A stretch of DNA of 64,000 bases. It comes from Vicinamibacterales bacterium (GTDB taxonomy: Bacteria; Acidobacteriota; Vicinamibacteria; Vicinamibacterales; UBA8438). The stretch's first letter is position 1. Every line of letters starts with the position of its first letter. Position numbers and translations under genes: made by a program. Under the pieces are notes generated by a model. That model was not told where the DNA came from, did no database searches, and saw only the letters and a program-made list of their open reading frames with translations. Below are positions 414 through 24,859 of the stretch, in pieces. The stretch lies in assembly GCA_965207675.1 (NCBI GenBank), contig CBDBMY010000008.1, positions 344,291 to 408,290 on the forward strand, given 5' to 3'.

Positions 414-419
414 ATGAGC

Positions 420-1702: not shown

Positions 1703-2121
1703 GATTCGCGGCGACCACTACCTTATCGACCGGGACACGGACGAGGTCGTGCGGCTGGACAAGCGCCCCACGGCGCGGGATCTCGGGCGACGGCAGGCCG
1801 AGGCGGCCGATGCGAAACGCCCGACGGCCCAACACCGCGGCGACCGAGGGGCCCCCGACCGTCCACTGAGGCGGAACCTCCGGGCCGAACGGGACACGCT
1901 CGACCGGATCCCTGTCCGAGCCGTTTCGACAGCTCCGCGCCGCGCCGCGGCCTCGCGGGCCATCAGGGAGAGGTGGCGCAGGTTCTCCTTCCGACCCCGG
2001 CCTTCACCATGCGGTCGAGCTGATGGCGTACGCGCCGTCGAGCTGAACCGGGGCCATCGACGATGCCGCTCCCGAGCCATGTTCGGCGTGGAGGCGCCCG
2101 CCGTTCCGCAGGCTCCCGCAC

Positions 2122-3801: not shown

Positions 3802-3888
3802 GCCCGTTTCATGACGGAACCGTCCGGCCGGCGATCCCAGCGCCTTCGCCGCGGACGGGCGCTGCCCGGACCGCCGCCGCTCGGCCCG

Positions 3889-3933
3889 GGTCCGCACCCA
3901 CGACAGCGCCGCGTGCGCCGACTCCCTCATCAC
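3889..3933 (-). pseudogene. lon: Short Lon protease fragment (segment preceding the Ser box)
   Basis: It encodes VMRESAHAALSWVRT. Nucleotides 3897-3935 are almost identical to 16498-16536 of the intact lon, which encodes VMKESAHAALSWVRA. Confidence 0.6.
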
Positions 3934-3935
3934 GC

Positions 3936-4133
3936 GGCATCAAGGAGAAGGTGCTGGCCGCCCGCCGCGCCGGACTGGCGCGGGTCGTCCTGCCGAAGCA
4001 GAACGAGAGCCGGGGCGAGGACGATCTCGGCGACGACCTGCGGCGCGAGATCGGCGTGCGGTACGTGTCGACGATCGACGAGGCGCTCGATCTGGCGCTG
4101 TCGCCGCCGGCGGCGGGGCAGGCCGAGGGGTAG
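3936..4133 (+). pseudogene. lon: Lon protease C-terminal fragment (Lys box to stop), inverted relative to the adjacent fragment
   Basis: GIKEKVLAARRAGLARVVLPKQNESRGEDDLGDDLRREIGVRYVSTIDEALDLAL aligns position for position with the last ~65 aa of the intact Lon (GVKEKVLAARRCGLAGVILPTANASEVDEKLGEDLLRGIDVRFVSTIDEMLARAL). The Ser box PKDGPSAG is missing. Confidence 0.7.
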
Positions 4134-4216
4134 ACGGGCTACGCGCCGGCCCGGCGCCGCCGCTCGCCGTCGACGACGGGCCATCCGCCACGCATGGGGT
4201 GGGTCCGGCGTCCCCG

Positions 4217-4600
4217 TCAACGCTTCCGTCCGCCGTCGGTGCGTTCCCGTTCGGCGGCGCCCCGTTCCACCGGCTTCCGTGCCCGTTCGAGGGGCGGCCG
4301 ATGCGTCTCCGGCGGGGGCGGGTCCGTCCGGTTCCTCGGCGGGTCGATGTCGGGGTATTGCGTCCTGCGGTCGTCCAATCGTCCGATGAACTCCGCGGGA
4401 TCGAACCCGATGGCCTTCGCCACCTCCATGAACTCGACGACGTCGAGCCGTCTCTCGCCTCCCTCGTACTTGGCGACGAACGACTGGGGCCGGTTCAGGT
4501 GGCCCGCGAGTCGGGCCTGGGTCAAGCCCGCGGCAATGCGCATCTTCTTCAACTGACGTCTGAAGTGAGCGGTTCTGGGCCCGAAGCTTGACCTCGGCAC
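4217..4600 (-). CDS. XRE-family helix-turn-helix transcriptional regulator
   Basis: LKKMRIAAGLTQARLAGHLNRPQSFVAKYEGGERRLDVVEFMEVAKAIG is a classic Cro/C1-type HTH followed by the ..E.G.R.. pattern. The C-terminal tail is Pro/Arg-rich. Confidence 0.85.
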   Translation of the reverse strand: MPRSSFGPRTAHFRRQLKKMRIAAGLTQARLAGHLNRPQSFVAKYEGGERRLDVVEFMEVAKAIGFDPAEFIGRLDDRRTQYPDIDPPRNRTDPPPPETHRPPLERARKPVERGAAERERTDGGRKR

Positions 4601-4870
4601 CCGTTCCGTTTACGCTGGTTCGCCCGATATCCCATATTGGGATGTCCGGGTCTGCAAGGCCTCGGGTCCGGGACCATGGGTTGAACGAGCGGCGCCCGTT
4701 CCATGTGGATTTCGTGTTCAAATATCCCATAGTAGGATATTTCGGCGATCCGTGGGGGGCCCCGCCGTCCGGTGTGTGCGTCAACGCATTACCGGAGGAG
4801 CAACGAGAGTGACAAGCCGCCCGCAGCTTCGGGATCGCGCCGTCCGGTGAGAGCCGGCTTTCGGTGCTGA

Positions 4871-5398
4871 ATGGCCGTGCAGCCGGCATTCGGAACCTCG
4901 GATCACGAAGGAGGACGAACCGTGTACGACATCCTGATCCGTTCACGTCGACACCAACAGCCGCAGCCGCTCCCGAAGGCACGTGTTCGGACTCGCCGCA
5001 ACGCTGTGACCTCGGTTCTCCTCGCCGCGTTCATGGTTCTGCCCGTCGTCGCCAGCGGCCAGAGCGGTCCGGCGGATCGAGCCCGCGAGGCCCCTCCGTC
5101 CGCCGCCGCCCCGACTTCCGCAGCTCTCGACATCGATCGCCTGGTCGCCGCGGCCGCGGATCGCGGCGTCCTGCTCCAACGCTCCCGGCCCGGCCAGGGC
5201 GGCAATTCGAACGCGAACACCATGAGGTGGGTCGGGATCGCCATGCTCGGTGCCGGGGGCCTGTTGGCCGTCAACGGGGCGCTCGCCACCTGCGGCACGA
5301 TCGACAGTGGCGTTTACCGCGAAACCGGCATGTGCGGGGGCCGCGTCATCGTCGGAGGCGGCGTCGCCGCTCTAGGGGCGTGGTTGATGACCCGATGA
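4871..5398 (+). CDS. Hypothetical membrane/secreted protein
   Basis: This is a track ORF. It has a hydrophobic N-terminal segment (VTSVLLAAFMVLPVVASGQ) and C-terminal Gly/Ala-rich hydrophobic helices (MRWVGIAMLGAGGLLAVNGALA, VIVGGGVAALGAWLM). The true start is probably internal. I recognise no family. Confidence 0.4.
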   Translation: MAVQPAFGTSDHEGGRTVYDILIRSRRHQQPQPLPKARVRTRRNAVTSVLLAAFMVLPVVASGQSGPADRAREAPPSAAAPTSAALDIDRLVAAAADRGVLLQRSRPGQGGNSNANTMRWVGIAMLGAGGLLAVNGALATCGTIDSGVYRETGMCGGRVIVGGGVAALGAWLMTR

Positions 5399-5551
5399 AC
5401 TGCGCTCCCTTCGCCGGGCGCTCGATCCCCGCATCGAGGTCGGCGGACCGCCGAATCGATGCGGCAGGACGGCTGGATGCGGTTGCCGCGGCGGCGTGAG
5501 CCGTCCGGAACGAGGGAATGCCGACCTCGCAGTTCCGATGGAGGTGCAGAT

Positions 5552-6460
5552 ATGAGGGCGATCTGGGGTGTACTCGCGGCGAGTGTTCTTGCGTCGGCGG
5601 TGCCCGACGCGGCCTGGGCGCAGGACAGGTTCATCCTCCTCGCGACGAATCGGACGGGCACGATGGAGGACGAACTCAACGCGGCCGGCGCCGACGGGTA
5701 CCGTTTCGTCGGTACCCAGGGCGGCGAGACGGCCTTCGGCGGCAGCGAGGTGGTCGTCATCATGGAGCGCGACCCGGAGGGTCGACGCTACCGCTACATG
5801 CTGTTGGCGACGAGCCGCACGGCGACGATGGAGCAGGAGCTCAACAGCGTCCCCCCGGAGTTCGAAGTCGTCGGCATGACGATCTTCGACTCCACGTTCG
5901 GGGGCGACGAGTCGGCGGTGATTCTGCAGGCCGAGGCGTCCGCGTTCACCACGTCATCGAACTCGTCCTCCGCCACCGCGTCCGGGGGGCGGCCCGACGC
6001 CCCGACGGCTCGGGAGTCGAACATCTACCTCGTTGCGGAGGACGGCTCCCGCCGACTGGTTGCGCCGAGCGCCGTCCGGCGCATCGAGGAGGAAGCCGGA
6101 GGGTTGTTCAGCCGGTCGAAGCTGTTCGCGATCCTCGCCGGGCTCGACGCCCCGACCAGAACCTCAGACCACTATCAGACCTTCGATTTCGAGACGGCGG
6201 ATCGGGGCGCCATCGACGAACTGGTGCTCGTCCGGTTCTACGAAGAGGCCGACTACGGCGAGCGCACGTTCGACGTCCTGCCCGGCGGCGTCAACCTGGA
6301 AGCGGTGATTCCACTCAGCACCGAGCTGCTCGACGACGGGATGTACCGCCTCCGGCCGGCCGAGCCCCTCGGTCTCGGCGAGTTCGGCTTCATCCGCCTC
6401 GAGACGGGTGAGGACATCACCCGGGGCTTGACGGTTCACGATTTCGGGGTTGAGCCCTGA
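5552..6460 (+). CDS. Secreted protein with internal duplication
   Basis: ATG 5552 follows GGAGGTG. The signal peptide is MRAIWGVLAASVLASAVPDAAWAQ. There is a duplicated module: RFILLATNRTGTMEDELNAAGADGYRFVG and YRYMLLATSRTATMEQELNSVPPEFEVVG. Confidence 0.7.
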   Translation: MRAIWGVLAASVLASAVPDAAWAQDRFILLATNRTGTMEDELNAAGADGYRFVGTQGGETAFGGSEVVVIMERDPEGRRYRYMLLATSRTATMEQELNSVPPEFEVVGMTIFDSTFGGDESAVILQAEASAFTTSSNSSSATASGGRPDAPTARESNIYLVAEDGSRRLVAPSAVRRIEEEAGGLFSRSKLFAILAGLDAPTRTSDHYQTFDFETADRGAIDELVLVRFYEEADYGERTFDVLPGGVNLEAVIPLSTELLDDGMYRLRPAEPLGLGEFGFIRLETGEDITRGLTVHDFGVEP

Positions 6461-6489
6461 AGCCCGCGCACTGATCTCCCAGCAGCGCC

Positions 6490-7275
6490 ATGGTGCGGGC
6501 CGACCAAAGGTCAAGGGAGATGACGAAAGAGCAAGGACAATCGGAAGCTCATTCGACCGGACTGAGGACACCGGCCACGACACCGGCCATGCCTTCCGGC
6601 GGCGCCGACACCGAGGCCGATGCGCCCGGCAGGGTCGTCGCGGCGGTGAACGCTAGCACTGACCGCATCCTCCGAGCCTTCGACGAGAAAATCAGGTACG
6701 ACACGACCAAACAGCAGGCAATCGACCGTCAGCACGCCGAACTCGTGGACCACCGCCGCGATCTGGTTGCTCAAGCCGCCGCCCCGTTCGTCTTCGGCAT
6801 GATTCACCACCACGCAGAGATCGAAAAGCTTATCGTGGCGGTGCGCGAGGAATCCGCACCGCCCTCGCCGCCCGGCCGGCCGCGCCCGCTGGCGCGGATT
6901 CTGCCGTGTCTGACCCGCGCGTGGAATCGGTGGACCATGCCCCGGCCCCGTGGCACGAACCCAAGCGGCGGCGATGTTCCGCCCGTCCGAGCCGAAATGC
7001 CCGCGGCCAAGGTCTGCGAGTTGTTGTCGAGTCTGCAGGAGGACATCGAGCACGTGCTGGGCGAGAACGGCGTCGCCGCGTACCGCCCCGAAGTCAGCCA
7101 ACCGTTCGATCCGGAACGTCACCGGGTCGTAGGCAAGACGCGGCCAACCGACGACGAAGCCCGTTCCGGCACCATCGCTGCCTGCCGGGGGCCCGGGTTC
7201 GAGCGTGGAGGACGGATTCTCGTAAAGGCACCCGTGTCGGCCTATCGGTACGAACGGACGTCGCCGGATTCCTAA
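6490..7275 (+). CDS. GrpE-like nucleotide exchange factor (divergent)
   Basis: The C-terminus (..VLGENGVAAYRPEVSQPFDPERHRVVGKTRPTDDEARSGTIAACRGPGFERGGRILVKAPVSAYRY) fits the GrpE beta-domain pattern (G-V..I..G..FDP..H.A....G.I....GY...R.LR.A.V.V). The N-terminal part is helical (FDEKIRYDTTKQQAIDRQHAELV). There is an unusual Pro-rich insert. The gene sits immediately upstream of an Hsp70 gene. An alternative start is at 6520. Confidence 0.65.
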   Translation: MVRADQRSREMTKEQGQSEAHSTGLRTPATTPAMPSGGADTEADAPGRVVAAVNASTDRILRAFDEKIRYDTTKQQAIDRQHAELVDHRRDLVAQAAAPFVFGMIHHHAEIEKLIVAVREESAPPSPPGRPRPLARILPCLTRAWNRWTMPRPRGTNPSGGDVPPVRAEMPAAKVCELLSSLQEDIEHVLGENGVAAYRPEVSQPFDPERHRVVGKTRPTDDEARSGTIAACRGPGFERGGRILVKAPVSAYRYERTSPDS

Positions 7276-7343
7276 AGGCTCCGATCCGACACCTGCGGCC
7301 AACACGGTCCACCGACCGGCAGTCATCGAAAGGACGTCACGAC

Positions 7344-9032
7344 ATGGCCACGGCCGACAAGAGCAACCCCGTCTTCGGCATCGACCTCGGGACCACGTAC
7401 TCGTGCATAGCGTACGTCAACGACGCTGGCAAGACCGAGGTCATCCCCAACTCAGACGGCGACCTCACCACGCCTTCCGTCGTCTACTTCGAGGATGCCC
7501 GGAACGTCGTCGTGGGCCAAACCGCCAAGGACGCGCTGCCGACGAATCCCGAGCGAGTGATCTCCCTGGTCAAGAGACGGATGGGAGACAAGGACGCGAA
7601 GTTCGAGGGCGTGACCGACGCGCCGCTGACGCCGCACGAGATATCGGCGCACGTTCTCCGGAGGCTCGTCCAAGACGCGCAGGACTACACACGTCGGGAG
7701 GACCCGATCACAGACGTTGTCATCACCTGCCCCGCCTACTTCGGATTCGCAGAGAAGGAGGCAACCCGCCAGGCTGGGGAAATCGCCGGCCTGAACGTGC
7801 GCCACGTCATCCCGGAACCGACCGCCGCGGCCATCTCCTACGGCATGATCGACGCGTCCCGCGACGAGACGGTGCTCGTGTATGACCTCGGAGGGGGCAC
7901 CTTCGACGTGACCGTTATCGACGTAAAGAAGGGCGACATCGAGGTCGTTTGTGTGGACGGAGACCACGATCTCGGCGGTGCCAACTGGGATGAGGACGTC
8001 GCAACGTGGTTTGCCGAGAAGTTCTCCAAGGAGCACCATACACCGACCACCAAGCTGATGAGCGACGCCGAAGCTTGGCAGGAATTGCTCGCATTGGCAG
8101 AAAAGGCCAAGAAATCCCTGACGGCCAGGAACAAATATACCGCGAGAATAACCCACGGCACCAAGCGATCGCAGGTCGAGCTCACCCGGGAAGAATTCGA
8201 CCACATCACCGGCGGCCAGCTTGAAACCACCATCATGGCGACGAAGAACGTCCTCAAGCATGCGCGGGAGAAGGGCCGCAGCAAGTTGGACAAAATACTA
8301 TTGGTCGGCGGGTCGACGTATATGCCTCAGGTCATGGAGCGCCTGAAGCGGGAGTTTCCCGAGGTTCCCGACATCGGCCTGCTCGACCCGAACCAAGCGG
8401 TGGCCAAGGGTGCCGCGGTGTTCGGCTACAAGTGCTATCTCGACGACGCGGTCGCGCGCAAGGTCTCGGAGCAGACGGGCGTTGAGGCTCCGGCGGTCGA
8501 GGATCTGTCCGATGCGGTGCGCGAACGCGCGGAGGCGAGCGTCGCGGCCGAAGAAGGGCTGCAACTTGCCCGAATGCAGAGCTTGACACGCAAGGAGATC
8601 CAAAACGTGACATCCAAGAGTTTCGGCACCAAGGTCTTCGACAGCGATACGGGCACAAGCTACGTCCACAACCTGATCGTGGCGGACGACAAGGTGCCGA
8701 CGGAGGTGACCGAGGGCTTCTTTACCGTGGAGGAAAACCAGACCGGGGTCGACGTGGTGTGTCTGGAGAACATTCTGCGTCAATCGGGGCGGGTCGATGT
8801 CGATGCATGTACCGAGATCGGGAAAGCGGAGCTGAAGTTCGCCAGACCTCTCCCCGCGCAGTCCCCGGTGCAGATTCGCTATGCGCTGTCCGCCGATGGG
8901 CTTCTCTCCGTGCACGGGAAGGACCCGACCACCGGAGGTGAAGTTCAGATGGAGATCGCAACCGCAGCGATCCTGAGCGCCGGCGAGGTTGAGGAAAAGA
9001 GACGCCGGAGCGGGGCGATGAAGGTGAGCTGA
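7344..9032 (+). CDS. Hsp70-family ATPase lacking the helical lid (non-canonical DnaK paralog)
   Basis: GIDLGTTYSCIAY, DLGGGTFDV, LLVGGSTYMPQV and DPNQAVAKGAA are the Hsp70 ATPase motifs. A beta-sandwich substrate-binding domain is present (..NLIVADDKVPTEVTEGFFTVEENQTGVDVVCLEN..PAQSPVQIRYALSADGLLSVHGKDPTTGGE). The protein ends ~25 aa after it, with no lid and no EEVD. GAAAGGA lies upstream of the ATG. Confidence 0.95.
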   Translation: MATADKSNPVFGIDLGTTYSCIAYVNDAGKTEVIPNSDGDLTTPSVVYFEDARNVVVGQTAKDALPTNPERVISLVKRRMGDKDAKFEGVTDAPLTPHEISAHVLRRLVQDAQDYTRREDPITDVVITCPAYFGFAEKEATRQAGEIAGLNVRHVIPEPTAAAISYGMIDASRDETVLVYDLGGGTFDVTVIDVKKGDIEVVCVDGDHDLGGANWDEDVATWFAEKFSKEHHTPTTKLMSDAEAWQELLALAEKAKKSLTARNKYTARITHGTKRSQVELTREEFDHITGGQLETTIMATKNVLKHAREKGRSKLDKILLVGGSTYMPQVMERLKREFPEVPDIGLLDPNQAVAKGAAVFGYKCYLDDAVARKVSEQTGVEAPAVEDLSDAVRERAEASVAAEEGLQLARMQSLTRKEIQNVTSKSFGTKVFDSDTGTSYVHNLIVADDKVPTEVTEGFFTVEENQTGVDVVCLENILRQSGRVDVDACTEIGKAELKFARPLPAQSPVQIRYALSADGLLSVHGKDPTTGGEVQMEIATAAILSAGEVEEKRRRSGAMKVS

Positions 9033-9093
9033 TGTTCGAAGGGGCGGCGCCAGTTGCGCCGGCCGTGGAGAACCGGCGCTGAAGGTGCAATTG

Positions 9094-10065
9094 ATGGTGG
9101 CGCAGAAGCTGCGGATGCTGCTTGAGACGCTGGAGTGCCCGGACGTCTACCTATTCCTCGGCGTAGATCGGAGCGCCCCGCTGGAAGAGCTGCAGGCGGC
9201 CGCTGAGAAGAAGTACGTCAGTACACATAACCAGAGCTCGCGAAACGCGGTGACCCGGGCCGCTGGCGAATTGGCGGGGCTGTGCAAGTCGGACATCTTC
9301 AGGAACGCGCGGACCAAGGCGGCGTACGACCGGGAGCTGGACCGGCAGGACCCGCAGCGGCAGGCCGCCGCGGCGCAGCAGCGGCAGCAAGCTTGGGCGC
9401 GAGTCACCGGTGCCGTCGCCGCCGCTGCGGACCGGGTGGTCAGGTACTCCGGGCGCGTCTCCGCCGGGGGAGCCGCGCTGATAGTCGCGGGGACGGTTCT
9501 GGGCACAGGTTTCGATGCGCCTTCGGGCGTATCGATACACAGGCTGGGAGTGCTGGCCTTTCCGTGCGGTTTCACGGCATTCCTCTACCGGGGACCCCGG
9601 CACCACACCGCCGTTGTCGCGGCCGGGGGATTCCTTGCGGTCGTGCTCGGAATCGTTGCGCGAGCCATTCATTCTTCCTTGACCGCGCAAGATGTGGCCG
9701 GCGGCGATGGGTCTCTGATGGAACTGCTCGGTCTGCTGAGACTGGTGGGCGGATTGGCTCTTCTGAGCGCGTTGGCGTCGTTCGTGTTCAGGGAGTCCTG
9801 GCACATCAGGGTCGGCGCCGCGGCGAAACCCTTTATGGAGTGGTGGCTTGCGACGATAGCCATTACCGGGAATCCGCTGATCATGGCCGGCGTCACGGGA
9901 ATGGCGTTTGCGCTGACCTTCGGTCTGACGGCCGGAGTCGTCATGACCTTTCTCTTCGGGGGCGGCGCGGACGAAAGGGTCCGAGCGGCGACCAGCGCGA
10001 CCGCATACGTTTCCGGCTTCCTCATCGTTGCAGGCGTTCTCCGGCGGCTCTTTTCGCGTCGCTGA
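9094..10065 (+). CDS. Polytopic membrane protein with N-terminal HPD-less J-like domain (paralog 1)
   Basis: DVYLFLGVDRSAPLEELQAAAEKKYVSTHNQSSRN..AGLCKSDIFRNARTKAAYDRELD follows the J-domain helix II / loop / helix III layout, with HNQ where HPD is expected. About six hydrophobic helices follow. Confidence 0.8.
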   Translation: MVAQKLRMLLETLECPDVYLFLGVDRSAPLEELQAAAEKKYVSTHNQSSRNAVTRAAGELAGLCKSDIFRNARTKAAYDRELDRQDPQRQAAAAQQRQQAWARVTGAVAAAADRVVRYSGRVSAGGAALIVAGTVLGTGFDAPSGVSIHRLGVLAFPCGFTAFLYRGPRHHTAVVAAGGFLAVVLGIVARAIHSSLTAQDVAGGDGSLMELLGLLRLVGGLALLSALASFVFRESWHIRVGAAAKPFMEWWLATIAITGNPLIMAGVTGMAFALTFGLTAGVVMTFLFGGGADERVRAATSATAYVSGFLIVAGVLRRLFSRR

Positions 10066-10216
10066 GGGGTCGGCTGGCGCATGAGGTCGCGGCGGACCCG
10101 AGGCCGGGACCGAGAGCGGTCCCGCTCGGCGTGAAGACCGAGATGACAACGAGGCAACCACCGGCGGGCGGAGCGTGGTCACGGGCGGAGTGCTGTCGGG
10201 ACGAGGAGTATGAGTG

Positions 10217-11383
10217 ATGGTGCCGCCAAAGGTATGGACACTGCTCGAGGCCGTGGGATGCGAAGACATCTACGGGTTCCTGGGCATGGAACGCGACGCT
10301 CCCTTGGAAGAGCTGCGGGCCGCAGCCGAGAGAAAATACGAAGCGATACACAACCAGAGTGCGAGAAGCGAAGGTGCGAGAGTCGGTGCGGCCCTGGCCG
10401 GATTGTGCAAGTCGACTATATTCAGGGATGCGGAGACGAGGAGCGGGTACGACGACGAGGCGGCGCTGCGGGGCGAAAGGCGTGCGGACCCTGCAGGTCA
10501 GCAGCTTGTCACGGCGGAGGAACGACAAAGGGCGGCAGCGGCGGCCGCGAGCGCGGCGGCTGCGGGCGTGGCGAGTGCGGTGGCCGAGGGGGCGAGAAGC
10601 GCGACCGCGAGCGCCGTGCGGTACGTCGAGGAGTACTGCAGAGGCATTTCGGCTACGGGGGCGGTTTTGGTCGCCGTGGGAGCGGCTCTGGCGGCGGGAG
10701 TCAGCGCACCGGCGGGCGCGATCGTCCTCGGCCTGGGAACGGCGATCTTTCCGTGCGGGTTCGCGGCGGTTATGTATAGGCGGTCCCGGGACTGGATAGT
10801 GCGCGTCGGCGGGGCCGGGCTTGTACTGGTCACGCTGGGCATCATGGGCGAGGGCTATTCAGCCGCAGCGATTGCGGAAGGTAGGGCGAATCCGGTGGTC
10901 TTGGCCCTGGTGGGCGGCTCGAGGCTGTTGGGCGGACTGGTCCTCGTCGCGGGCTTGGCGTCGTTCGGGCTGAAGGAAGCTTGGCACGTGAAGGCCGCCG
11001 ACACGACGGGCCCCGCCGTGGAGTGGTGGCAAGCGAGGATCGGCGCGGGGAACCCGGCGATCGTGCTGGGCGCCGCGGGGTTGGCGTTTGCGGCCGCGAT
11101 GGCGATCGCCGTCCGCCCCGTCGTGAGTATCGTTTTCGGCTCCGGGGGCGCGGGATTGGTGGAGTCCGTGGTGTCGGCGGCGGCCTCTTACTCTGCTTTA
11201 CTCCTTGGTGGAGGCGTCGCGTGGCGGTTGGCCAAGCGCTACGGGGGGGTAACGGAGCGTGGTGGGGACACTCTCCAATGCGGGAGGTGCGGAACGCGGT
11301 CGGCTCGCAGCAAGTGTCGGGATGGCGACGGCTTCAGAGTTACGTATCGCTGTGCCGTCTGTGGGGCCCGCATGGAGGGGTAG
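10217..11383 (+). CDS. Polytopic membrane protein with HPD-less J-like domain and C-terminal zinc ribbon (paralog 2)
   Basis: The J-like domain is DIYGFLGMERDAPLEELRAAAERKYEAIHNQSARS..AGLCKSTIFRDAETRSGYDDE. The membrane region is paralogous to that of the previous gene. The C-terminus reads CGRCG..CAVCG. A GGAG RBS is present. Confidence 0.8.
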   Translation: MVPPKVWTLLEAVGCEDIYGFLGMERDAPLEELRAAAERKYEAIHNQSARSEGARVGAALAGLCKSTIFRDAETRSGYDDEAALRGERRADPAGQQLVTAEERQRAAAAAASAAAAGVASAVAEGARSATASAVRYVEEYCRGISATGAVLVAVGAALAAGVSAPAGAIVLGLGTAIFPCGFAAVMYRRSRDWIVRVGGAGLVLVTLGIMGEGYSAAAIAEGRANPVVLALVGGSRLLGGLVLVAGLASFGLKEAWHVKAADTTGPAVEWWQARIGAGNPAIVLGAAGLAFAAAMAIAVRPVVSIVFGSGGAGLVESVVSAAASYSALLLGGGVAWRLAKRYGGVTERGGDTLQCGRCGTRSARSKCRDGDGFRVTYRCAVCGARMEG

Positions 11384-11609
11384 ACGACACGTGGGTGCCG
11401 TTAGATTCGGTCTGGGTGGGGCCCATTCGGGTAGAGAACTCAGTTATGGTGCTTCTGGCCGCGGTGGCTTATCGACCGGGGGCAATGACGACGCGGGGCC
11501 CGCTACTCGGCAGCGGTTTGGCGCGTCGGCCGGATGACGGGATGCAGGGGATCTGTGGAGATCACGGAGAAGGGACTCGGTCGGAGAAAGGCGCAAGAGG
11601 GTACTAACT

Positions 11610-13367
11610 ATGGTGCCGTCAAAGGTTTGCCAGCTGCTCGAAAAGGTTGGATGCGACGACGTATACGAGTTCTTGGCATGCGAGCGGAGCGCGCCGCTGG
11701 AAGAGCTGCGTGAGGCCGCGGACGCCAAGTATAGGCAGATACACAACCAGAGCTCGTCAACGGACGCGCAGAAGGCCGCGAGAGACCTGGCGGGGCTGTG
11801 CAAGGCCGCGATATTCATGGACGCGGCGAGCAAGAGGGCATATGACGAGGAAACCGACACGCGGCGGAAGCCCGAGGGAGGCGTGGTCTCCGCGGTCGTG
11901 GCAGCGGTGGTCGTGGTCGCGGTTGTGGTCGGCGCCGCGTGGATGGTTTGGCAGGGCGCCGTTTGGGTTGTCGACCGCGTAGAGGGCTGGGTGTCTCGGC
12001 CGGTGGAAGAGGGACCCGTGGAACCTCCAGCGCCTCTGCCCCATGATCCTCCCGACCCGGAACCGGAAGCGGAACCGGAAGATGGACCGCAGGCCGAGGA
12101 GCGACGGCTCGGTCTCGATAGGGCTGCCCGAACACGAGTGCAGGTCGCGTTGTCGGAGGGGGATTACGATCCCGGTGAGGCCGACGGGTTGTTGGGCGAG
12201 CGCAGCAGGAATGCCCTCCGGGCTTGGCAGCGGGACCGCGATCTTGAGGTAACGGGGTATCTGACCCGCGAGACCGCGGAGCGGTTGGGCGCCTTCGATC
12301 TGGACCCGGATATTGGGACGGCGGAAATTGATGCGGGTACGTTGACTATCCGAGGGGATCCGTTGAGTTCGATTTCAGTCGATGGGGCGTTCGTCGGCAG
12401 CGTGCCGGAGGAGTCAGGGGTCGTGGTCGTTCGGGAAGTCGAGCCAGGGAGTCATTTCGTCGTTGCGCGGCGTGAAGGGTACAGGACGGTGGAGAGGGTC
12501 GTGGATGTCGTCCACGGTCGGGCAGAGGTCGTGGACGCAACCCGCGGGGGGATGTCGGGGCTGCTGGCAGTGTCGGCGGACGTGGCCGGGGCGTTGCTTC
12601 GCATCAACGACGGTGAAGAGCGGGCCCTTCCAGTGACGGATCTCGAGATCGCGCCCGGCTCGCACGATCTGGCGGTAAGCCGCGAAGGGTACAGGCCGGT
12701 CAAGGACCGCATCGACGTTCGTCCGGGTCAGCTCGTCAGCCGGAACGTCATCCTCGAGGCGATCCCGCATGAGGAGCGCGTCATGGATGCTCTTGACCCC
12801 GCGCTGGCGCACTTCCGGGCGGGGGACTATCGGGCGGTCGTCGACGCGGTGCGGTCTGTCCTCGATGTCGTCGGGAATTCCGTGCTTGCGTACTGGTTGC
12901 TCGGGGTTGGTCTTTACGAGCTCGGGGAGTTCGTAGAGAGCGTGCAGCCGTTGACCATGGCCATCGGTCTCGGTGCCGAAGTGGTACTGCCCGCCAAGCA
13001 TCGCCACGGAGGGGGAGGCTTCCGGGAGGGATTCTGTACCGGCACACTCACGTTGAGCCTCGACGAGATTGCGTTCGTCTCGGTCGACGATCCGGGTCAC
13101 GGTTTTGCCGTGGCTCCGGACAAGATGACGGAGCCCACCGTCGCGCAGTCCGTCGGCGGCTTCCCGTACCGTTTGAACACCGGCGTGCGAGACCTTGAGC
13201 GCGGCATAGAGCGGAACAATTTCGACTTCGTCCACTGGAAAGCTGAGCCTCAGGCCGCGGACCCCGATTCTCTGCGGCTGGTCGTTCTCGGGTGTCCGGA
13301 CTGTGACGCGTCGATGTTCGTTCAGCATGCCCTCATGACCACCGTGATCCGCGGTGCGAGCCAGTGA
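11610..13367 (+). CDS. Single-pass protein: HPD-less J-like domain, TM, PG-binding, 2x PEGA, TPR-like, C-terminal beta domain (paralog 3)
   Basis: The J-like domain is DVYEFLACERSAPLEELREAADAKYRQIHNQSSST..AGLCKAAIFMDAASKRAYDEE and the TM segment is VVSAVVAAVVVVAVVVGAAWMVW. DGLLGERSRNALRAWQRDRDLEVTGYLTRET resembles PG_binding_1. GSHFVVARREGYRTVERVVDV and GSHDLAVSREGYRPVKDRIDV resemble PEGA domains. Confidence 0.85.
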   Translation: MVPSKVCQLLEKVGCDDVYEFLACERSAPLEELREAADAKYRQIHNQSSSTDAQKAARDLAGLCKAAIFMDAASKRAYDEETDTRRKPEGGVVSAVVAAVVVVAVVVGAAWMVWQGAVWVVDRVEGWVSRPVEEGPVEPPAPLPHDPPDPEPEAEPEDGPQAEERRLGLDRAARTRVQVALSEGDYDPGEADGLLGERSRNALRAWQRDRDLEVTGYLTRETAERLGAFDLDPDIGTAEIDAGTLTIRGDPLSSISVDGAFVGSVPEESGVVVVREVEPGSHFVVARREGYRTVERVVDVVHGRAEVVDATRGGMSGLLAVSADVAGALLRINDGEERALPVTDLEIAPGSHDLAVSREGYRPVKDRIDVRPGQLVSRNVILEAIPHEERVMDALDPALAHFRAGDYRAVVDAVRSVLDVVGNSVLAYWLLGVGLYELGEFVESVQPLTMAIGLGAEVVLPAKHRHGGGGFREGFCTGTLTLSLDEIAFVSVDDPGHGFAVAPDKMTEPTVAQSVGGFPYRLNTGVRDLERGIERNNFDFVHWKAEPQAADPDSLRLVVLGCPDCDASMFVQHALMTTVIRGASQ

Positions 13368-13430
13368 GTGCGCGTTCCGCGTTTCACCGAGGACGGTGGG
13401 GTTTGAAATGCAGAGGGCGAAAACGAAGGA

Positions 13431-14075
13431 ATGGGATTGCCAGGGTCGTTAGCGGCATTTGGGCACGAAACAGGGCATGGACCAATGCAGGAGGACGCCG
13501 TGGGTGATCTGGCTGCGTACAAGGCCAAGCTGAGGCAAATCGATTGGCTTCGTACACTCGTGTTTATCTGGTTTCGCGGTGGCCTATCGATGTTAATCTG
13601 GGTGAGTCCGCTCATGATTTTGGTTTTTCGCAGCTCGCCTCAGGAGGGTCAAGGTTCCGCGGAGGTAGCGGGGCTTGTAGGACTAACCCTGTTTTTTGTT
13701 GTTGTGGGCCCACCCTTGGCTCTATTTTTGGGTATTGGAAATCAGGTCGACGCGGCAGCGACTCGCCTGTACCGTCGCGCTATGGCGTTCTTGGGTCAGT
13801 TTTTCATACTGTTTACTTGGCCGGTGATTTTGATGGCGTTTGCGTTCTGGGGTATCTTGCTTGTCGGCGGGTTCTTGTTTCGGATTTTCTGCGTTCTGCT
13901 GGTCTGCGTAGGTGATCCTCTTCTGATCCTGGCGCGTCGGTTGTTGCCGGGAGCACTGCCGTTTGACGTTCGGCCGGTACTGTTTCAACGTTATGTCCTT
14001 GTTTGGTCGAGGAGTGAGGCCGACACGACTTGGCAATTCGTCAGACTGGCGGACTGGTGGCGGGGGGACGGGTAG
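13431..14075 (+). CDS. Multi-pass membrane protein, no family recognised
   Basis: This track ORF lies in a clearly less GC-rich stretch. It has long hydrophobic helices (LVFIWFRGGLSMLIWVSPLMILVF, GLVGLTLFFVVVGPPLALFLGI, FFILFTWPVILMAFAFWGILLVGGFLFRIFCVLLVCV). It begins 63 bp after the third J-like gene on the same strand. Confidence 0.5.
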   Translation: MGLPGSLAAFGHETGHGPMQEDAVGDLAAYKAKLRQIDWLRTLVFIWFRGGLSMLIWVSPLMILVFRSSPQEGQGSAEVAGLVGLTLFFVVVGPPLALFLGIGNQVDAAATRLYRRAMAFLGQFFILFTWPVILMAFAFWGILLVGGFLFRIFCVLLVCVGDPLLILARRLLPGALPFDVRPVLFQRYVLVWSRSEADTTWQFVRLADWWRGDG

Positions 14076-14364
14076 GCAAGGGGACCCTCGGCGACAGGTC
14101 TTCCCGCAGGTGCAGGTCGTGCGGACGGGCGGTACGTTGGGGCGGATGTTGGAGGGAATCGTGAATGCGCAACACGGGGATCGTCGTTTCTTGCTGTGAA
14201 ACGCTTCCGGAGTCCGGGCGCACGGATAGCGTGACCGCGGCTGACGGTCCTGCGGCGTGCCGGCGGGAGGTCCAGGATTAGGGGGTGACGGTGTGGGCAG
14301 CCCCGACTGTGGCCCGGCACGGCGTCGCGGATCCGGAGACACCGGGGTGAGGAACGTCCGGGGG

Positions 14365-14900
14365 TTTGCGCCTCCTCAAGGAAGCCGTACTGGCTGAGCA
14401 TGCGGAGCCACCGCGGCGCATTGCGCCCGACAACCAAGCGTTGGTAGTCGATGCCGGGGTCGGTGTAGGGCCGGTCGTCGCGGAGGACGGCGGGAAGCAC
14501 CCGCAACAGCTTGTGGGCGGTTGCGAGAATGGCGCGCTTGTAGCCGCGGCGGCCGGCGAGGGCCCGAAGGCTCCGGCCGCTACGTCGCCAACGGCGTGAC
14601 CGCGTCGGGCGTCGAGATGCGCCGGTTCGCGCCGTTCGGCGGCGCTATCGCAGACCGCGTGCAGATCGGTTCGGCGCCGGGGTCGCGAGCGTCGCCGGGC
14701 TGCGGATCGGGTGGATGCGGAAACGGGCAGGGTGGTCGACTCGGCCTCCGCCCGGACGGTCCTGGCCCTGCGGGGAATCGACAAGCTGGGCATCGATGGC
14801 CTCGTGCCGCTCGGCCGGTTGGAGTTCGCCGTCGCGGCGATACCGGTCTGGGGGCTGAAGGTGAAGGCGAAGGGCGGCTGAACTTCCGGGACCATGACGA
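14365..14900 (-). pseudogene. IS110-family transposase remnant
   Basis: ..RRGYKRAILATAHKLLRVLPAVLRDDRPYTDPGIDYQRLVVGRNAPRWLRMLSQYGF parallels the IS110-type C-terminus at 31447-31839. The upstream part is frameshifted and degraded. Confidence 0.45.
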
Positions 14901-15125: not shown

Positions 15126-15936
15126 ATGACCGACTCCCCGACATCCGCCGTCCCGCCCGTTTGGCGGATCGGCTTGTGCGTGGCCGCCGCGATGCTCGTC
15201 GGCGCCGTCGCCCACGGGTAGCCGGCCACTCCGGCGTTGGAGGTCCTGTCGCCGGACGGCGCCCGGTACCTGTCGGGCCGCGAACGGCTGGCGGTCCGGC
15301 TGACCCCCGCCGGCGCGACGGCGCGCGTCGAGTTCTTCATCGACGGCCAACGCGTCTGTCTGCGCGAACGGCTCCCGTGCGAGTGCGACTGGGACGCCGG
15401 CGCCGACGGCCAGGCGCGCGTCGTACGCATCCTGGCCACCCTCGCCGACGGGCGCCGGCTGGTCCGTCGCGTCCACACCCCGGCGCGCGCCGGCATGACG
15501 TTCAGGAGCGCCGTGAACGTCGTGCTGGTGCCGGCCGTCGTGACCGACCGGCGCGGGGCGGTACGTGACCGAGTTGCGCGAGGACGGCGAGCCGCGACGA
15601 GTCAGCTACTTCTCGCCGCCCTCGGCCAGGGGGCTGGACCTGGTCATCGCGCTGGACGTCAGGACGCTGGGTCGCCGCTCGGAAGTGCGCGAGGTGCGCG
15701 ACGTCGTGACGCGGCTGGCCGGCGTCAGCGGCGGCCAGGGGTTCCCGGTCGACCGGCTCGACCGGCAGGAGCGGGCGCTGGGGAGCTTCGCCGACGACCT
15801 GCGCCACCAGTACCTGCTCGGCTTCACGCCGCCGCTGGCCGAAGGCGCCGTCGGCGCCTTTCGATGGCTCGCGGTCGATGTGCGCGGCGGCAGTTTCCGG
15901 GTGCGCGCACGCGAGGGCTACCGGTCGTCCCCGTAA
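15126..15936 (+). pseudogene. Remnant of a VWFA-related Acidobacterial-domain (TIGR03436-like) protein
   Basis: MTDSPTSAVPPVWRIGLCVAAAMLVGAVAHG is followed by an in-frame TAG at 15219-15221, then ..LEVLSPDGARYLSG..FRSAVNVVLVPAVVTDRRG. After a frame change it reads ..LREDGEPRRVSYFS.., and the tail is ..DLRHQYLLGFTPP..VDVRGGSFRVRAREGYR. The central VWA part is largely missing. Confidence 0.5.
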
Positions 15937-16009
15937 CGCCGTCGGCCCCTGACTCCCGCCAACCGGGTTCGGGCATTGCGCGCGGCGCCGTCGGCGGGCG
16001 ACCGTGACG

Positions 16010-16040
16010 GTCGGCGCCCGGGCATCGCCCGGGCGCCGAC
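16010..16040. terminator. Perfect 14-bp-stem GC hairpin between convergent genes (putative bidirectional terminator)
   Basis: GTCGGCGCCCGGGC-ATC-GCCCGGGCGCCGAC lies 48 nt downstream of the lon stop (minus strand) and 74 nt downstream of the VWFA remnant (plus strand). There is no clear U-tract. Confidence 0.45.
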
Positions 16041-16088
16041 CCTTGCGCTCGTCGGTCGGCCATGACATTCCGTGGCCGTTGCCGCCGG

Positions 16089-19000
16089 TCAGGCCGGTTG
16101 CGCCGTCGGCGGCGCCAGCGCCCGCGCCAGCATTTCGTCGATCGTGGACACGAAGCGCACGTCGATCCCCCGCAGCAGGTCTTCGCCGAGCTTCTCGTCG
16201 ACCTCACTCGCGTTCGCGGTCGGCAGGATCACCCCGGCGAGTCCGCAGCGGCGGGCGGCCAGCACCTTCTCCTTGACGCCGCCGACCCCGAGCACGTCCC
16301 CCGAGAGGGTGATCTCGCCGGTCATGGCGAGGTCGCGGCGCACGGCACGCCCGGTGAGGGTGGAGACCAGCGCGGCGACCATCGCCACGCCCGCCGACGG
16401 TCCGTCCTTCGGGATGCTGCCGGCCGGCACGTGCAGGTGCACCTCGGCGGCCTCGTAGAACCCGGGGGCGACGCCGTAGCGGGTGGCGTTGGCGCGCACC
16501 CACGACAGCGCCGCGTGCGCCGACTCCTTCATCACGTCACCCAACTGTCCGGTGAGGGTCAGCGCACCGCCGCCGGGCATCCGGCTGGCTTCGACGAACA
16601 GCACGTCGCCGCCGGCGGGGGTCCACGACAGCCCCATCGCCACGCCGGGGCGCTTCATGCGCCCCGACGGCGCTTCGTCGGCGTGCGGTGGCCGGCCCAG
16701 CATGTCGGCGACCGCCGGCTCCGTGATCTCGACCGGCGACTCGTCTCCCCCGGCCCGCCGCAGCGCCACCTTGCGGCAGACCGCGCCGATGCGGCGGCCG
16801 AGTTCGCGCACGCCCGCCTCGCGCGTGTAGCCGCGAATCAGGGCGTGCAGCGCCCCGTCGGTGAAGCGGACCCCCTCGGCCGCGAGGCCGTTCTCGTCGA
16901 GCTGCCGGCCGACCAGATGCGCCCGGGCGATCTCGAGCTTCTCGTCCTCCGAGTAGCCCGGCAGCTCGATCTTCTCCAGGCGGTCGCGGAGCGGAGCCGC
17001 TATCCGGCTCCACTCGTTCGCGGTGGCGACGAAGAACGTCTCCGACAGGTCGAACGGCACCTCCACGTAGTTGTCGACGAACTTCTTGTTCTGTTCCGGG
17101 TCGAGCACCTCGAGCAGCGCCGACTCGGGGTCGCCCCCGCTGTTCGAGACCCGCGAGATCTTGTCGACCTCGTCCAGCAGCAGCACCGGGTTCTTCGAGC
17201 CGATTCTGACGAGCTCGCGCACGAGCCGGCCCGGCTGCGCGGCGCGCCACGTGCGGTTGTGTCCGCGCAGCTCCGTCCCGTCGCTCATTCCGGCGAAGGA
17301 CATCTTGGCGAACTTCCTGCCCATGGCGTCCGCGATGCCCTGCGCAAGCGACGTCTTGCCGACCCCGGGGGGGCCGACGAGGCAGAGAACCGTCCTCGGG
17401 CTGCCGCCGAGTTTCCGCACCGCCAGATCCTCCAGCAGCCGCGCCTTCGCCTTGGCGAGCCCCCAGTGCCCCTCGTCCAGCAGCTCGCGGGCGCGCCGCT
17501 GGTCGATGGGTTCCTCGCGGCGGGCGTTCCACGGCAGGCCGGTGAGGCACTGGAGATAGGTGAACCGGTCGCCGTAGTCGGCGTCGCCCGGCGACCTCGA
17601 CAGCATCAACTGCAGCTCGCGCTTGGCGTGCCGTCGCGCCGCGTCCGGCAGGCCGCCGCGGTCGATCGCCGCCCGGATCCCCTCGACGCCGGGCAGGACT
17701 TCGCCGCCGCCCTTCCCCGCGCCGAGCACCTCCCGGACCGTGTCCGCCGTCACCGCGGTCGTCTCCGCGGCGCCGCCGCTCGACGCCTCCAGTCGGAGCG
17801 CCGTCCGCCGGCAGATCGCCGAGACGCCGCGGTCGAGGTCCCGCACGCCCATTTCGTTCGCGTGGTCGCGGATCATCCCCCGCAGCGCCTCGTCTTCGAA
17901 CGCGATCAGCCCGCCCGTCAGTCCGTGGTCGCGGATGCGCGCCGGCACGAGGATCCGCTTGGCGATCTCGAACTTCTCCTCCACCGTGTAGCCGGCGATC
18001 TCGATCGCCTCCACGCGGTCCCGCAGCACCGCGGGAATATCGCCGAGCACGTTCGCGGTGGCGATGAAGAAGACCTCCGACAGGTCGAACGGCAGGTCCA
18101 CGTAGAGATCGTGGAATGCGGCGTTCCGGGTCGGATCGAGCGCGTCGAGCAGCGCCATGCCCGGCGCCCAGCCCACCTTGTCGATCTCGTCGAGGAGGAA
18201 CACGGGATTCCTCGCGCCGATTCTCTGCAACTGCCGGATGATCGCCCCGGGGTGCGACGCGGCATAGTCGCGTCGGGCGCCCCGGACGTCGGCGACCTCC
18301 GTCAAGCCGTTGCACGACATCTCGGCGAATCTGCGGCCGAGGGCCCGGGCGACGCCCGCCGCCAGCGAGGTCTTGCCCACGCCCGGCGGCCCGACGAAGC
18401 AGAGAATCTGTCCCCGCGCGTCACCCTTACGACGGCGCACGGCCAGGTGTTCGAGGATGCGATTTTTCGCGTCCCGGAGTCCGACATGCCGTTCGTTCAG
18501 GACGCTCCGGGCGCGCTCGACATCGATCGTCTCCGGCCCGCCGCCGCGCCACGGCAGGTCGGCCAGCACGAGGAAGTACTCCCTGACTTTCTCGGCTGTG
18601 TCCGCCGACAGCTTGTCGAGCTCGGGCCTCAACCGGTTCAGCACCTCCCGGGGCATGCCGCACGCCTCGATCCTGCCGCGGAGTCTCTTGGTCGGGTCCT
18701 CCAACTGCGCCTGGACGTCGTCAAGCCTGGTCTTCAGAAGCCGGCCGCCGAGGGAGTCGTCCCGTCGGCGTTCCGATGCCTGCCGCCAGTGCTCCTCCCT
18801 CGCCTTCAGGCCGCGTTCGTAGGTCTTCTCCGGGCCCGCCCCCTCGAGCGCGTCGACCATGAACGCGTTCAGCGCGCGCACGCGTTCGCCCGGATTGAGG
18901 ATGTCGAGCCACCGCTGCTGGAGCGGGACCGGAACGTCGAGGTCGGCGATGCGCCTGATCAGGCTGACCGCGATGAAGTCCGCGGCCACGTCGATGGGGA

Positions 19001-19595
19001 GGGCGGGCGCCTGCCACGACTTCGCGGACGCGCTGTCGCGCGACGGTGAAGCCGAGCCGTCGCGGTCGCGCCCCCGCCCGAGCTCGATCGCCTCGAGGAC
19101 ATCCAGCAGATCGGCCGCCGCAACGGCGTCGGTGCCCGGAGACCGTTCGAGCAGCTTCACGAAGTTGTCCCGGACCCCCTGGTAGTCGGCGCAGCGGCCG
19201 AAGACCGGGTACGCGGGGTTGGGGCCCGGCGAGGCGCCGCCCTGATCGCCGACCGCGCGCGCGAGGAGCCGCAGCGTCACGAGGGACGGCTCCGGGAAGC
19301 CGGCTGCTGTGCCGAGCGTGCAGACCCTGCCGGGGACGCCGGAGTCCCCGTGCGGCGGCGGGTCGAACCGGCAACGGAACTTGAAGACCCTCGACCCGGG
19401 CAGGTCAGGACTCGACCGGCCGCCTGCCTGCTCGACGAGCCGCGCGAGCGGGTCCGTCGGGGTCACGGCCAGCGTGACCGACTCGCCCGGGAACAGGACC
19501 ATGCCGGGAAGATCGAGCGTCGGGAGCCTCGACACGTCGGGCAGCCCGCGGAACGGTCGAGGGTCGAACGAAGAACGGCTAATCGTGATTGGCAT
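16089..19595 (-). CDS. lon: Lon protease with tandemly duplicated AAA+ module (N domain, AAA+ 1, AAA+ 2, S-K protease)
   Basis: The N domain begins LPTLDLPGMVLFPGESVTLAV. Walker A GPPGVGKTSLA occurs twice (encoded at ~18369-18395 and ~17354-17385). Walker B is LLDEIDK in one copy and LLDEVDK in the other. The Ser box PKDGPSAG and Lys box GGVKEKVLAA are present. I set the start at ATG 19595 (GGAGAG 8 nt upstream); the track ORF extends to 19742. Confidence 0.9.
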   Translation of the reverse strand: MPITISRSSFDPRPFRGLPDVSRLPTLDLPGMVLFPGESVTLAVTPTDPLARLVEQAGGRSSPDLPGSRVFKFRCRFDPPPHGDSGVPGRVCTLGTAAGFPEPSLVTLRLLARAVGDQGGASPGPNPAYPVFGRCADYQGVRDNFVKLLERSPGTDAVAAADLLDVLEAIELGRGRDRDGSASPSRDSASAKSWQAPALPIDVAADFIAVSLIRRIADLDVPVPLQQRWLDILNPGERVRALNAFMVDALEGAGPEKTYERGLKAREEHWRQASERRRDDSLGGRLLKTRLDDVQAQLEDPTKRLRGRIEACGMPREVLNRLRPELDKLSADTAEKVREYFLVLADLPWRGGGPETIDVERARSVLNERHVGLRDAKNRILEHLAVRRRKGDARGQILCFVGPPGVGKTSLAAGVARALGRRFAEMSCNGLTEVADVRGARRDYAASHPGAIIRQLQRIGARNPVFLLDEIDKVGWAPGMALLDALDPTRNAAFHDLYVDLPFDLSEVFFIATANVLGDIPAVLRDRVEAIEIAGYTVEEKFEIAKRILVPARIRDHGLTGGLIAFEDEALRGMIRDHANEMGVRDLDRGVSAICRRTALRLEASSGGAAETTAVTADTVREVLGAGKGGGEVLPGVEGIRAAIDRGGLPDAARRHAKRELQLMLSRSPGDADYGDRFTYLQCLTGLPWNARREEPIDQRRARELLDEGHWGLAKAKARLLEDLAVRKLGGSPRTVLCLVGPPGVGKTSLAQGIADAMGRKFAKMSFAGMSDGTELRGHNRTWRAAQPGRLVRELVRIGSKNPVLLLDEVDKISRVSNSGGDPESALLEVLDPEQNKKFVDNYVEVPFDLSETFFVATANEWSRIAAPLRDRLEKIELPGYSEDEKLEIARAHLVGRQLDENGLAAEGVRFTDGALHALIRGYTREAGVRELGRRIGAVCRKVALRRAGGDESPVEITEPAVADMLGRPPHADEAPSGRMKRPGVAMGLSWTPAGGDVLFVEASRMPGGGALTLTGQLGDVMKESAHAALSWVRANATRYGVAPGFYEAAEVHLHVPAGSIPKDGPSAGVAMVAALVSTLTGRAVRRDLAMTGEITLSGDVLGVGGVKEKVLAARRCGLAGVILPTANASEVDEKLGEDLLRGIDVRFVSTIDEMLARALAPPTAQPA

Positions 19596-19805
19596 TTCGA
19601 TAACTCTCCAGCGGTTCTCGAACCGCTCGGACATTCGATGAAAGGGCCAGCCGGCGCGCTCCGAGCCTCGCGGATGGACGCAGAGCGCACGGAACAACCG
19701 GGCTGCGCGCGAGCCGCCCTCCGCCACGTTGGGCGTTGGCAAAGATCGCCAGCAAGGGCAACCGAACGACTTCCCCGGATTCAGGAATTCGGACGTGTTC
19801 GTCCG

Positions 19806-24848: not shown

Positions 24849-24859
24849 GGAGACCTGCC

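Follow-up and report, generated by a model that had tools for sequence, protein, structure and literature searches.

Here, we analysed J3, a membrane protein encoded in a 64,000-nucleotide (nt) stretch of DNA from a Vicinamibacterales bacterium (GenBank assembly GCA_965207675.1, contig CBDBMY010000008.1, positions 344,291 to 408,290 of the forward strand; hereafter 'the window'). J3 joins a sensor-like ectodomain of the kind carried by receptor kinases to a cytosolic J-like domain, and its operon encodes a private Hsp70/GrpE pair. This constellation departs from the usual view, in which Hsp70 systems are proteostasis machines and J-proteins choose their clients or locations. We propose, and give the proposal an even chance, that J3 crosses the inner membrane once and acts as a 'receptor J-like protein', wiring an envelope input to a dedicated Hsp70. 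Our starting point was an original prediction, made from the sequence alone, of a cytosolic J-like domain, one transmembrane segment and about 460 extracytoplasmic residues, which might together report envelope damage such as phage lysis to the chaperone.

J3 is a real, conserved gene with an ATG start and codes for 585 amino acids (aa). Its family is very rare: among 5.8 billion clusters, the homolog search returned 17 matches, all from metagenomes or metagenome-assembled genomes (MAGs), comprising one identical 585-aa protein, 15 strong homologs (40–77% identity) and one weak match. In the genome collection, eight of the nine loci with relatives belong to Vicinamibacteria/Vicinamibacterales MAGs (Acidobacteriota), while the ninth, from a Verrucomicrobia MAG, is a weak match (31% identity, E = 2e-9). 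Given these relatives, the host of the window (GC content about 68%) is most likely a diderm acidobacterium and 'periplasmic' is hence the right term for the external part of J3. The genes of the operon are all located on the forward strand in the order GrpE-like, Hsp70, J1, J2, J3, J3 being the third J-like membrane paralog (Table 1).

The hydropathy profile of J3 shows a single strong segment at residues ~92–121 (Kyte-Doolittle peak 2.94), and the AlphaFold2 (AF2) model of the full protein, built with 16 homologs and reaching a mean predicted local distance difference test score (pLDDT) of 83, has a helix at 94–126. The N-terminal flank of this segment contains five Lys/Arg residues and the C-terminal flank two, and no N-terminal signal peptide was found in J3. 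One transmembrane helix, the charge bias and the missing signal peptide together indicate an N-in/C-out topology, so that the predicted layout was borne out and the large domain is not placed in the cytosol. Independent support comes from locus L008, in which a form of the ecto-module lacks a transmembrane anchor and follows a lipoprotein-type signal peptide (LLLLAAAGC), which argues for an extracytoplasmic location of the module.

Searches with hidden Markov models (HMMs) placed both PG_binding_1 and PEGA (PF08308; 51 bits, cut-off 20.8) above their Pfam cut-offs. PG_binding_1 follows the N-in transmembrane helix and is thus extracytoplasmic; it had been predicted as a repeat and turned out to be a single domain, which forms three helices in the AF2 model and matches the peptidoglycan-binding domain of SltB3 (36% identity, root-mean-square deviation (rmsd) 1.0, 56 columns). 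PEGA matched in two stretches, in agreement with two AF2 beta-sandwiches and with the two PEGA-like domains expected. The TPR-like helices are present in the model, yet TPR_16 (PF13432) stayed below its cut-off of 32.7 in J3 (15.7 bits), whereas homologs pass, e.g. the one from L012 with 38.2 bits.

The C-terminal domain, previously described as beta-rich, comprises about eight AF2 strands and a C-terminal helix cap, a secondary structure that fits the seven-stranded, helix-capped sandwich of PH/GRAM domains; it is probably PH/GRAM-like and has invariant His/Cys motifs. A whole-chain Foldseek search yielded mostly generic beta-sandwiches, with the PH domains of Sin1, Slm1 and SCAB1 at E-values of 2e-3 to 2e-2, and weak Pfam matches to GRAM or PH_TFIIH were obtained for four of nine members (best E 0.003–0.011). 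The domain belongs to no Pfam family, and a profile search of PDB sequences gave no meaningful relative; we call it a putative PH/GRAM-like domain, as yet unclassified. An alignment of 13 sequences, down to 36% identity, revealed the invariant residues H464-R465-H466, C476, H497, F538-D539-F540-x-H542 and C562-x-x-C565-D566. When JGI metagenomes were scanned with this domain, a single locus was found.

Parts of the module occur on entirely different proteins. In loci L006, L007, L009 and L012, Hanks-type Ser/Thr kinases carry the PEGA-PEGA-TPR-C-terminal module on the outside of the membrane (Pkinase with 157–166 bits in L006, L007 and L012 by Pfam scan; L009 was assigned by its kinase N-terminal sequence). 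In L003, L005 and L010 the ecto-module is attached to an unrelated N-domain ('MPEYKK'), in part combined with ankyrin repeats, and encoded after Tubulin_2 and a 1200-aa protein with an actin/Hsp70 fold. The ecto-module is hence a portable extracytoplasmic cassette. As the same module stands outside the membrane on receptor kinases, the simplest reading is that it acts as a sensor, with the J-like domain as the output by position; the sensor-like character originally ascribed to this part of J3 thereby gains real support.

The N-terminal domain of J3 adopts a J fold, as anticipated for a co-chaperone-like domain, while lacking the HPD motif. A profile built from eight family members matched 26 entries of the PDB, all of them J-domains (best E 0.026), with HNQ aligned to HPD. 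The Pfam model DnaJ (PF00226) aligned to J3 over its entire length (1–63 of 63 positions), but with 13 bits remained below the cut-off of 27.8. In the AF2 model of J3, helices at residues 18–22, 30–45, 52–68 and 72–86 constitute the four-helix J fold; modelled alone, the domain reached a pLDDT of 82.7 and its Foldseek matches were nearly all J-domains (probability ~1.0, TMq 0.55–0.63, rmsd 2–4 Å). The domain is thus a J fold that departs from both sequence hallmarks, the HPD motif and the gathering score. With an exhaustive search by HMMER we obtained 495 cluster representatives with the J-like domain, about 50 of which carry it at the N-terminus and are nearly all membrane proteins; their C-terminal parts vary between multi-pass bundles, PG_binding_1/PEGA/TPR (7 of 34), TonB_C and LRR. 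Word-indexed homolog searches with two short domain alignments returned a few short fragments only and were uninformative for architecture counts. A large census of J-proteins excluded all sequences without the full HPD motif; since the Pfam cut-off also failed here, the class of HPD-less J-like proteins is probably under-counted. In one family member (L017, 2873–4909, P0021), two tandem J-like domains with the loops KHK and QNQ precede the transmembrane helix and the PG_binding_1/PEGA module.

The nucleotide-binding domain (NBD) of the Hsp70 in the operon aligns to residues 9–361 of DnaK, and the equivalents of K70, E171, D194, T199 and D201 are conserved, which suggests that its ATPase is probably active. 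Its beta-type substrate-binding domain (SBD-beta, 443–551) has diverged and the alpha-helical lid is missing. The expectation that relatives of J3 are accompanied by an Hsp70 largely held: GrpE-like and Hsp70 genes immediately precede it, in the same orientation, in seven of the eight loci in which a J-like domain is linked to the ecto-module (the window, L001, L002, L004, L015, L017 and the distant L011).

Several observations weigh against a receptor that signals through Hsp70. J-domains act through the hydrophobic VLLL linker of Hsp70, and HPD is required for canonical stimulation of the ATPase. The HPD tripeptide is absent from J3, which has HNQ instead; the position is highly variable across the family (HNQ, QNQ, QNR, QNK, QRL and others); and the VLLL linker of the Hsp70 is replaced by an insert of ~50–80 aa, so that canonical co-chaperone action of J3 is unlikely. 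Co-occurrence does not extend to every locus, as no Hsp70 or GrpE gene is found within 8 kb upstream in L016 (P0014), and synteny and covariation counts are not phylogenetically independent, since a single bacterial class and a small number of metagenomes supplied all loci. A defence role finds no backing in PADLOC-DB 2.0, where J3, Hsp70, J1, J2 and the downstream ORF (open reading frame) had no match at E ≤ 1, or in viral contigs, in which no relatives were found. In the L016 region (375–9722), the protein has HGE at the loop and no PG_binding_1, and genes for ClpB-like AAA_2, Fer4_12, FHA and PP2C proteins are located upstream.

The evolutionary setting bears on whether J3 serves signalling or housekeeping. 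DNA of the MAG locus L010 is 95–96% identical to the window at 4965–6460 and 15650–17547, and between these flanks L010 carries the tubulin/actin-fold cassette where the window carries GrpE-Hsp70-J1-J2-J3. The entire cytosolic machinery is thus exchanged between near-identical genomes. The window furthermore harbours recombinase, integrase and transposase genes (Table 1), and related loci are also rich in insertion sequence elements. The swap and the mobile-element context together indicate that the cluster is accessory and, in evolutionary terms, mobile. Could J3 nevertheless be a passive anchor that only tethers the dedicated Hsp70 at peptidoglycan-fixed sites of the membrane, where Hsp70 would chaperone or assemble proteins of the membrane and envelope in housekeeping or stress proteostasis, as in the pairs DjlA-DnaK or DjlB/DjlC-HscC? 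Membrane J-proteins that localise Hsp70 are established and DjlA needs its membrane localisation (PMC11709261), PG_binding_1 and PEGA are often plain anchoring domains, and the missing defence-family match would fit as well. A mere anchor is, however, hard to square with an ecto-module that receptor kinases, too, carry on their outer side, and the invariant His/Cys residues of the PH/GRAM-like domain look, in the alignment, typical of a binding site. The exchange of the cassette between near-identical genomes and the rarity of the family also speak against housekeeping. We therefore regard the anchor as unlikely, though as a contender to be taken seriously.

A second alternative concerns the contact between J3 and its Hsp70. 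The position of DnaK R167 is never Arg in Hsp70s of these systems, being His in the window only, Ser in L001 and Tyr elsewhere, and the position of DnaK N170 is Pro in all of them. Across six loci that are not phylogenetically independent (the window, L001, L002, L004, L015 and L017), the residue at the R167 position covaries with the J-like loop: His or Ser accompanies HNQ, and Tyr accompanies QNQ or QNR. As D35N in DnaJ is classically suppressed by R167H in DnaK (PMC5519331), covariation at the D35–R167 contact gives a hint of an interface that was re-tuned and not abandoned. Strict compensation of the R167H/D35N type was rejected, since His occurs in the window Hsp70 only and most relatives have Tyr; the covariation is a hint only. 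If the J domain had instead decayed, it would no longer address the NBD and might mediate homotypic or heterotypic contacts between the three paralogs, similar to Pam16–Pam18, or be a client itself, with Hsp70 as effector or scaffold. The absent HPD and its variable position, the replaced linker and the presence of three paralogous J-like domains in one operon would fit this idea, as would the view of Kaur et al. that HSP70 and tubulin are assembly-forming components of such systems (PMC7159879). We consider decay improbable, however: the J fold is strongly kept, nearly always beside Hsp70 and GrpE, the covariation hints at a maintained contact, and L002, L004, L015 and L017 manage with one J-like protein each, which makes heterotypic pairing dispensable. 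Inside-out energy transduction, in which the ATP cycle of cytosolic Hsp70 would pull or remodel the periplasmic part of J3 in analogy to TonB/TolA and could thereby remodel or probe the cell wall, is very improbable, for although one J-like transmembrane family member carries TonB_C, the weak ecto-module relative P0017 is annotated as a TonB family protein and the long disordered Pro/Glu-rich linker of J3 is TonB-like, Hsp70-driven transmembrane force is without known precedent, the fusion of the ecto-module to kinases points to outside-in signalling and the operon encodes no outer-membrane partner.

For the receptor J-like protein we favour, we hypothesise the following course of events. The ecto-module, anchored on the cell wall, would constitute the input, with the conserved His/Cys pocket of its terminal domain as a likely ligand-binding or metal/redox site. 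The J-like domain would be the output and dock the operon's own Hsp70 at the membrane via a re-tuned J–NBD interface, whereupon the Hsp70/GrpE ATP cycle would hold or release membrane-proximal clients, most plausibly the multi-pass paralogs J1 and J2. Such a device would serve a response to conflict or stress that is linked to the envelope and whose threshold the chaperone gates, rather than housekeeping folding. A conflict or stress role appears most likely to us because the GrpE-Hsp70-J trio has its homologous counterpart in the DO-GTPase/GAP1-N2 systems discussed below and because it resides in a swap-prone island rich in mobile elements. Co-chaperone activity, the direction of signalling and a trigger such as envelope damage or phage attack, as put forward in the original prediction, are what we infer on top of the architecture.

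A more far-reaching version, which we put forward tentatively and hold to be doubtful, sees a new mode of transmembrane signalling in J3: a kinase-interchangeable sensor would control the dedicated, non-canonical Hsp70/GrpE pair through an HPD-less J-like domain, and this pair would gate J1 and J2 as membrane-embedded effectors of an immune or abortive response set off at the envelope, making the operon a minimal GTPase-free relative of the DO-GTPase systems. If the coupling is true, a chaperone-based output would join the repertoire of bacterial transmembrane receptors. Our results suggest a largely unexplored route by which the state of the envelope is coupled to a chaperone machine.

Table 1 Features of the window, with the operon and the domains of J3 listed first.
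Feature	Position (nt)	Residues of J3	Strand	Description
GrpE-like nucleotide-exchange factor	6490–7275		+	Operon head; Pfam GrpE 29.8 bits, cut-off 25.8
Atypical Hsp70	7344–9032		+	NBD intact, linker insert, SBD-beta, no lid
J1	9094–10065		+	J-like domain (HNQ), then multi-pass membrane region
J2	10217–11383		+	J-like domain (HNQ), multi-pass membrane region, C-terminal CxxC...CxxC zinc ribbon
J3	11610–13367		+	Bitopic; J-like / PG_binding_1 / PEGA x2 / TPR-like / PH-GRAM-like, 585 aa
Cytosolic J-like domain	11610–11867	1–86	+	Extra N-terminal helix and J helices I–IV; HNQ (aa 45–47) at HPD position
Single transmembrane helix	11883–11987	~92–126	+	N-in/C-out; hydropathy, AF2
Disordered Pro/Glu-rich periplasmic linker	11988–12086	127–159	+	pLDDT <50
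PG_binding_1 domain	12087–12287	160–226	+	Pfam PF01471 39.5 bits, cut-off 23, at 173–226
Two PEGA / CarboxypepD_reg-like beta-sandwiches	12336–12758	243–311, 317–383	+	Pfam, AF2, Foldseek
Four TPR-like helices	12768–12968	387–453	+	AF2; Pfam sub-threshold
Unclassified PH/GRAM-like C-terminal domain	12981–13361	458–584	+	AF2, Foldseek, alignment
Variable cassette	6461–14552		.	Replaced in L010; only ecto-module 12099–13375 common, 72% nt identity
Metallophos protein	908–1717		-	Upstream of cluster, opposite strand
Metallophos + NTP_transf_2 fusion	2122–3939		-	605 aa; upstream of cluster, opposite strand
HTH_31 regulator	4217–4609		-	Upstream of cluster, opposite strand
Three tandem tyrosine recombinases (Phage_integrase)	23586–26802		+	
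rve gene	27365–28396			
Mutator transposase	29321–30661			
rve gene	34375–36228			
Integrase	58131–59342			

Around these features, further observations were made. The zinc ribbon of J2 lies within 11270–11383, C-terminal CxxC motifs are frequent in the consensus of multi-pass J-like relatives, and J-Fn3 proteins of DO-GTPase systems carry double zinc ribbons. Located 63 nt after J3, an ORF of 214 aa (13431–14075, forward strand) contains two to three hydrophobic segments and has a GC content of 0.555 (0.60 at third codon positions), well below that of its neighbours; it had no match in Pfam, NCBIfam or PADLOC and no tblastn match in related loci, and is either a doubtful gene or was acquired recently. 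Directly 5' of the GrpE-like gene, a 333-aa ORF without Pfam match (5459–6460, forward strand) has homologs beside the cassette in L010 (96.5% identity), L015 (77–91%) and L002 (58%) and may be part of the system. Near the cluster, a gene on the reverse strand (16089–19742) encodes a Lon-like protease of 1217 aa that contains a pair of AAA+ modules (Lon_C 250.8 bits); homologs with 36–95% identity lie near the Hsp70/J cluster in L002 (1–3900) and L015 (1–2927) and flank the tubulin cassette in L010 (19865–21295). The protease may be a linked component or merely a conserved flank of the variable island. The Metallophos, NTP_transf_2 and HTH_31 genes may represent another accessory or conflict-type module. 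A scan of 6000–14600 for promoters and terminators gave results within shuffled expectation, and no tRNA genes were found in the window.

The alternative cassette itself (L003, 2805–12133; L010, 1980–11299; L005, 1294–11263) encodes proteins of 477 aa and 179 aa without Pfam match, Tubulin_2, the 1200-aa protein with an actin/MreB-like segment and the MPEYKK transmembrane protein, and a LemA gene follows directly in L010 and ~2 kb further downstream in L003. It appears to represent a tubulin-based membrane system not described before.

How does J3 compare to known chaperone systems at the membrane? In E. coli, the specialised Hsp70 HscC is encoded beside the paralogous tail-anchored proteins DjlB and DjlC and presumably acts at the plasma membrane on membrane-protein clients (PMC8215388). 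Both systems encode a specialised Hsp70 next to paralogous membrane-anchored J-proteins; in J3, however, the J-like domain comes first and a transmembrane helix connects it to a periplasmic module of 460 aa, HPD is lost and the operon has its own GrpE-like gene. We thus rejected an assignment of J3 to the HscC-DjlB/DjlC type, i.e. a tail-anchored J-domain protein with HPD/HPE beside a lid-modified Hsp70. DjlA of E. coli, a membrane-anchored co-chaperone of DnaK, activates the Rcs envelope-stress phosphorelay, for which its membrane localisation is essential (PMC11709261). Like J3, it spans the inner membrane once and exposes a J domain to the cytosol, and its Hsp70/GrpE-dependent action feeds envelope-stress signalling. 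In contrast to J3, DjlA reaches into the periplasm with a few residues only, carries a TerB-like domain, ends in a canonical J domain with HPD and works with the housekeeping DnaK; J3 has the reversed order, starting with the J-like domain, and combines a sensor-like ectodomain of large size with an Hsp70 of its own. A sensor ectodomain is missing from HscC-DjlB/DjlC as well as from DjlA, and HPD/HPE is kept in both. We also rejected the Hsp70-like domains of CoCoNuT restriction systems as a model: they are fused to McrB/McrC, their ATPase motifs are degenerate, and neither DnaJ nor GrpE is mentioned for them. A further parallel is with bacterial receptor Ser/Thr kinases that have wall-binding sensors outside the cytoplasm (PknB-PASTA type). 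Among them, the Vicinamibacteria kinases with the ecto-module of J3 show the identical layout of a cytosolic output, a transmembrane helix and a PEGA-PEGA-TPR-PH-like module, the modules being homologous at 36–37% identity; they differ in having a kinase output where J3 has the J-like domain, and in the absence of PG_binding_1.

The closest relationship is to the conflict systems with GAP1-N2 and DO-GTPase proteins predicted by Kaur, Burroughs, Iyer and Aravind (eLife 2020; PMC7159879), which comprise a theme with HSP70 and GrpE and, mutually exclusive with HSP70, a tubulin theme, and for which PEGA-type ectodomains were noted. Our J-like profile matches the J-ZnR-Fn3 proteins at E ~1e-12; these relatives are ~1000 aa long, contain the J-like domain at ~150–240 together with double zinc ribbons and Fn3, and one of them is fused to DO-GTPase2. 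In locus L014, the order is GrpE, HSP70, HSP70/VWA, J-ZnR-Fn3, DO-GTPase2, GAP1-N2/M, and its Hsp70 is 49.5% identical to the Hsp70 of the window over the full length. The DO-GTPase2 and GAP1-N2/M proteins of L014 had no tblastn match in the whole window, and Pfam found nothing in the flanking ORFs. Membership was hence rejected, since the core DO-GTPase/GAP1 pair is absent from the window, and the J3 operon is, as far as its sequence indicates, a GTPase-free relative of these systems. Both have a homologous J-like domain and a homologous Hsp70 including the linker insert and the lid-less SBD, a cluster headed by a GrpE-like gene and thus the set of HSP70, GrpE and a J-bearing component, membrane-proximal, peptidoglycan-associating ectodomains (PEGA) and the alternative between tubulin and HSP70. 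They differ in that the J-like domain of the window is N-terminal and followed by transmembrane segments, whereas theirs is followed by zinc ribbons and FNIII repeats, that a PG_binding_1-PEGA-TPR-PH-like ecto-module on a J-like protein was not described there (PMC7159879), and that they were reported from Actinobacteria and Firmicutes while J3 is from Acidobacteriota. If J3 indeed couples its ectodomain to Hsp70, the operon, with its five genes, would offer a tractable minimal model of the HSP70-containing conflict systems, which were predicted in 2020 and are uncharacterised.

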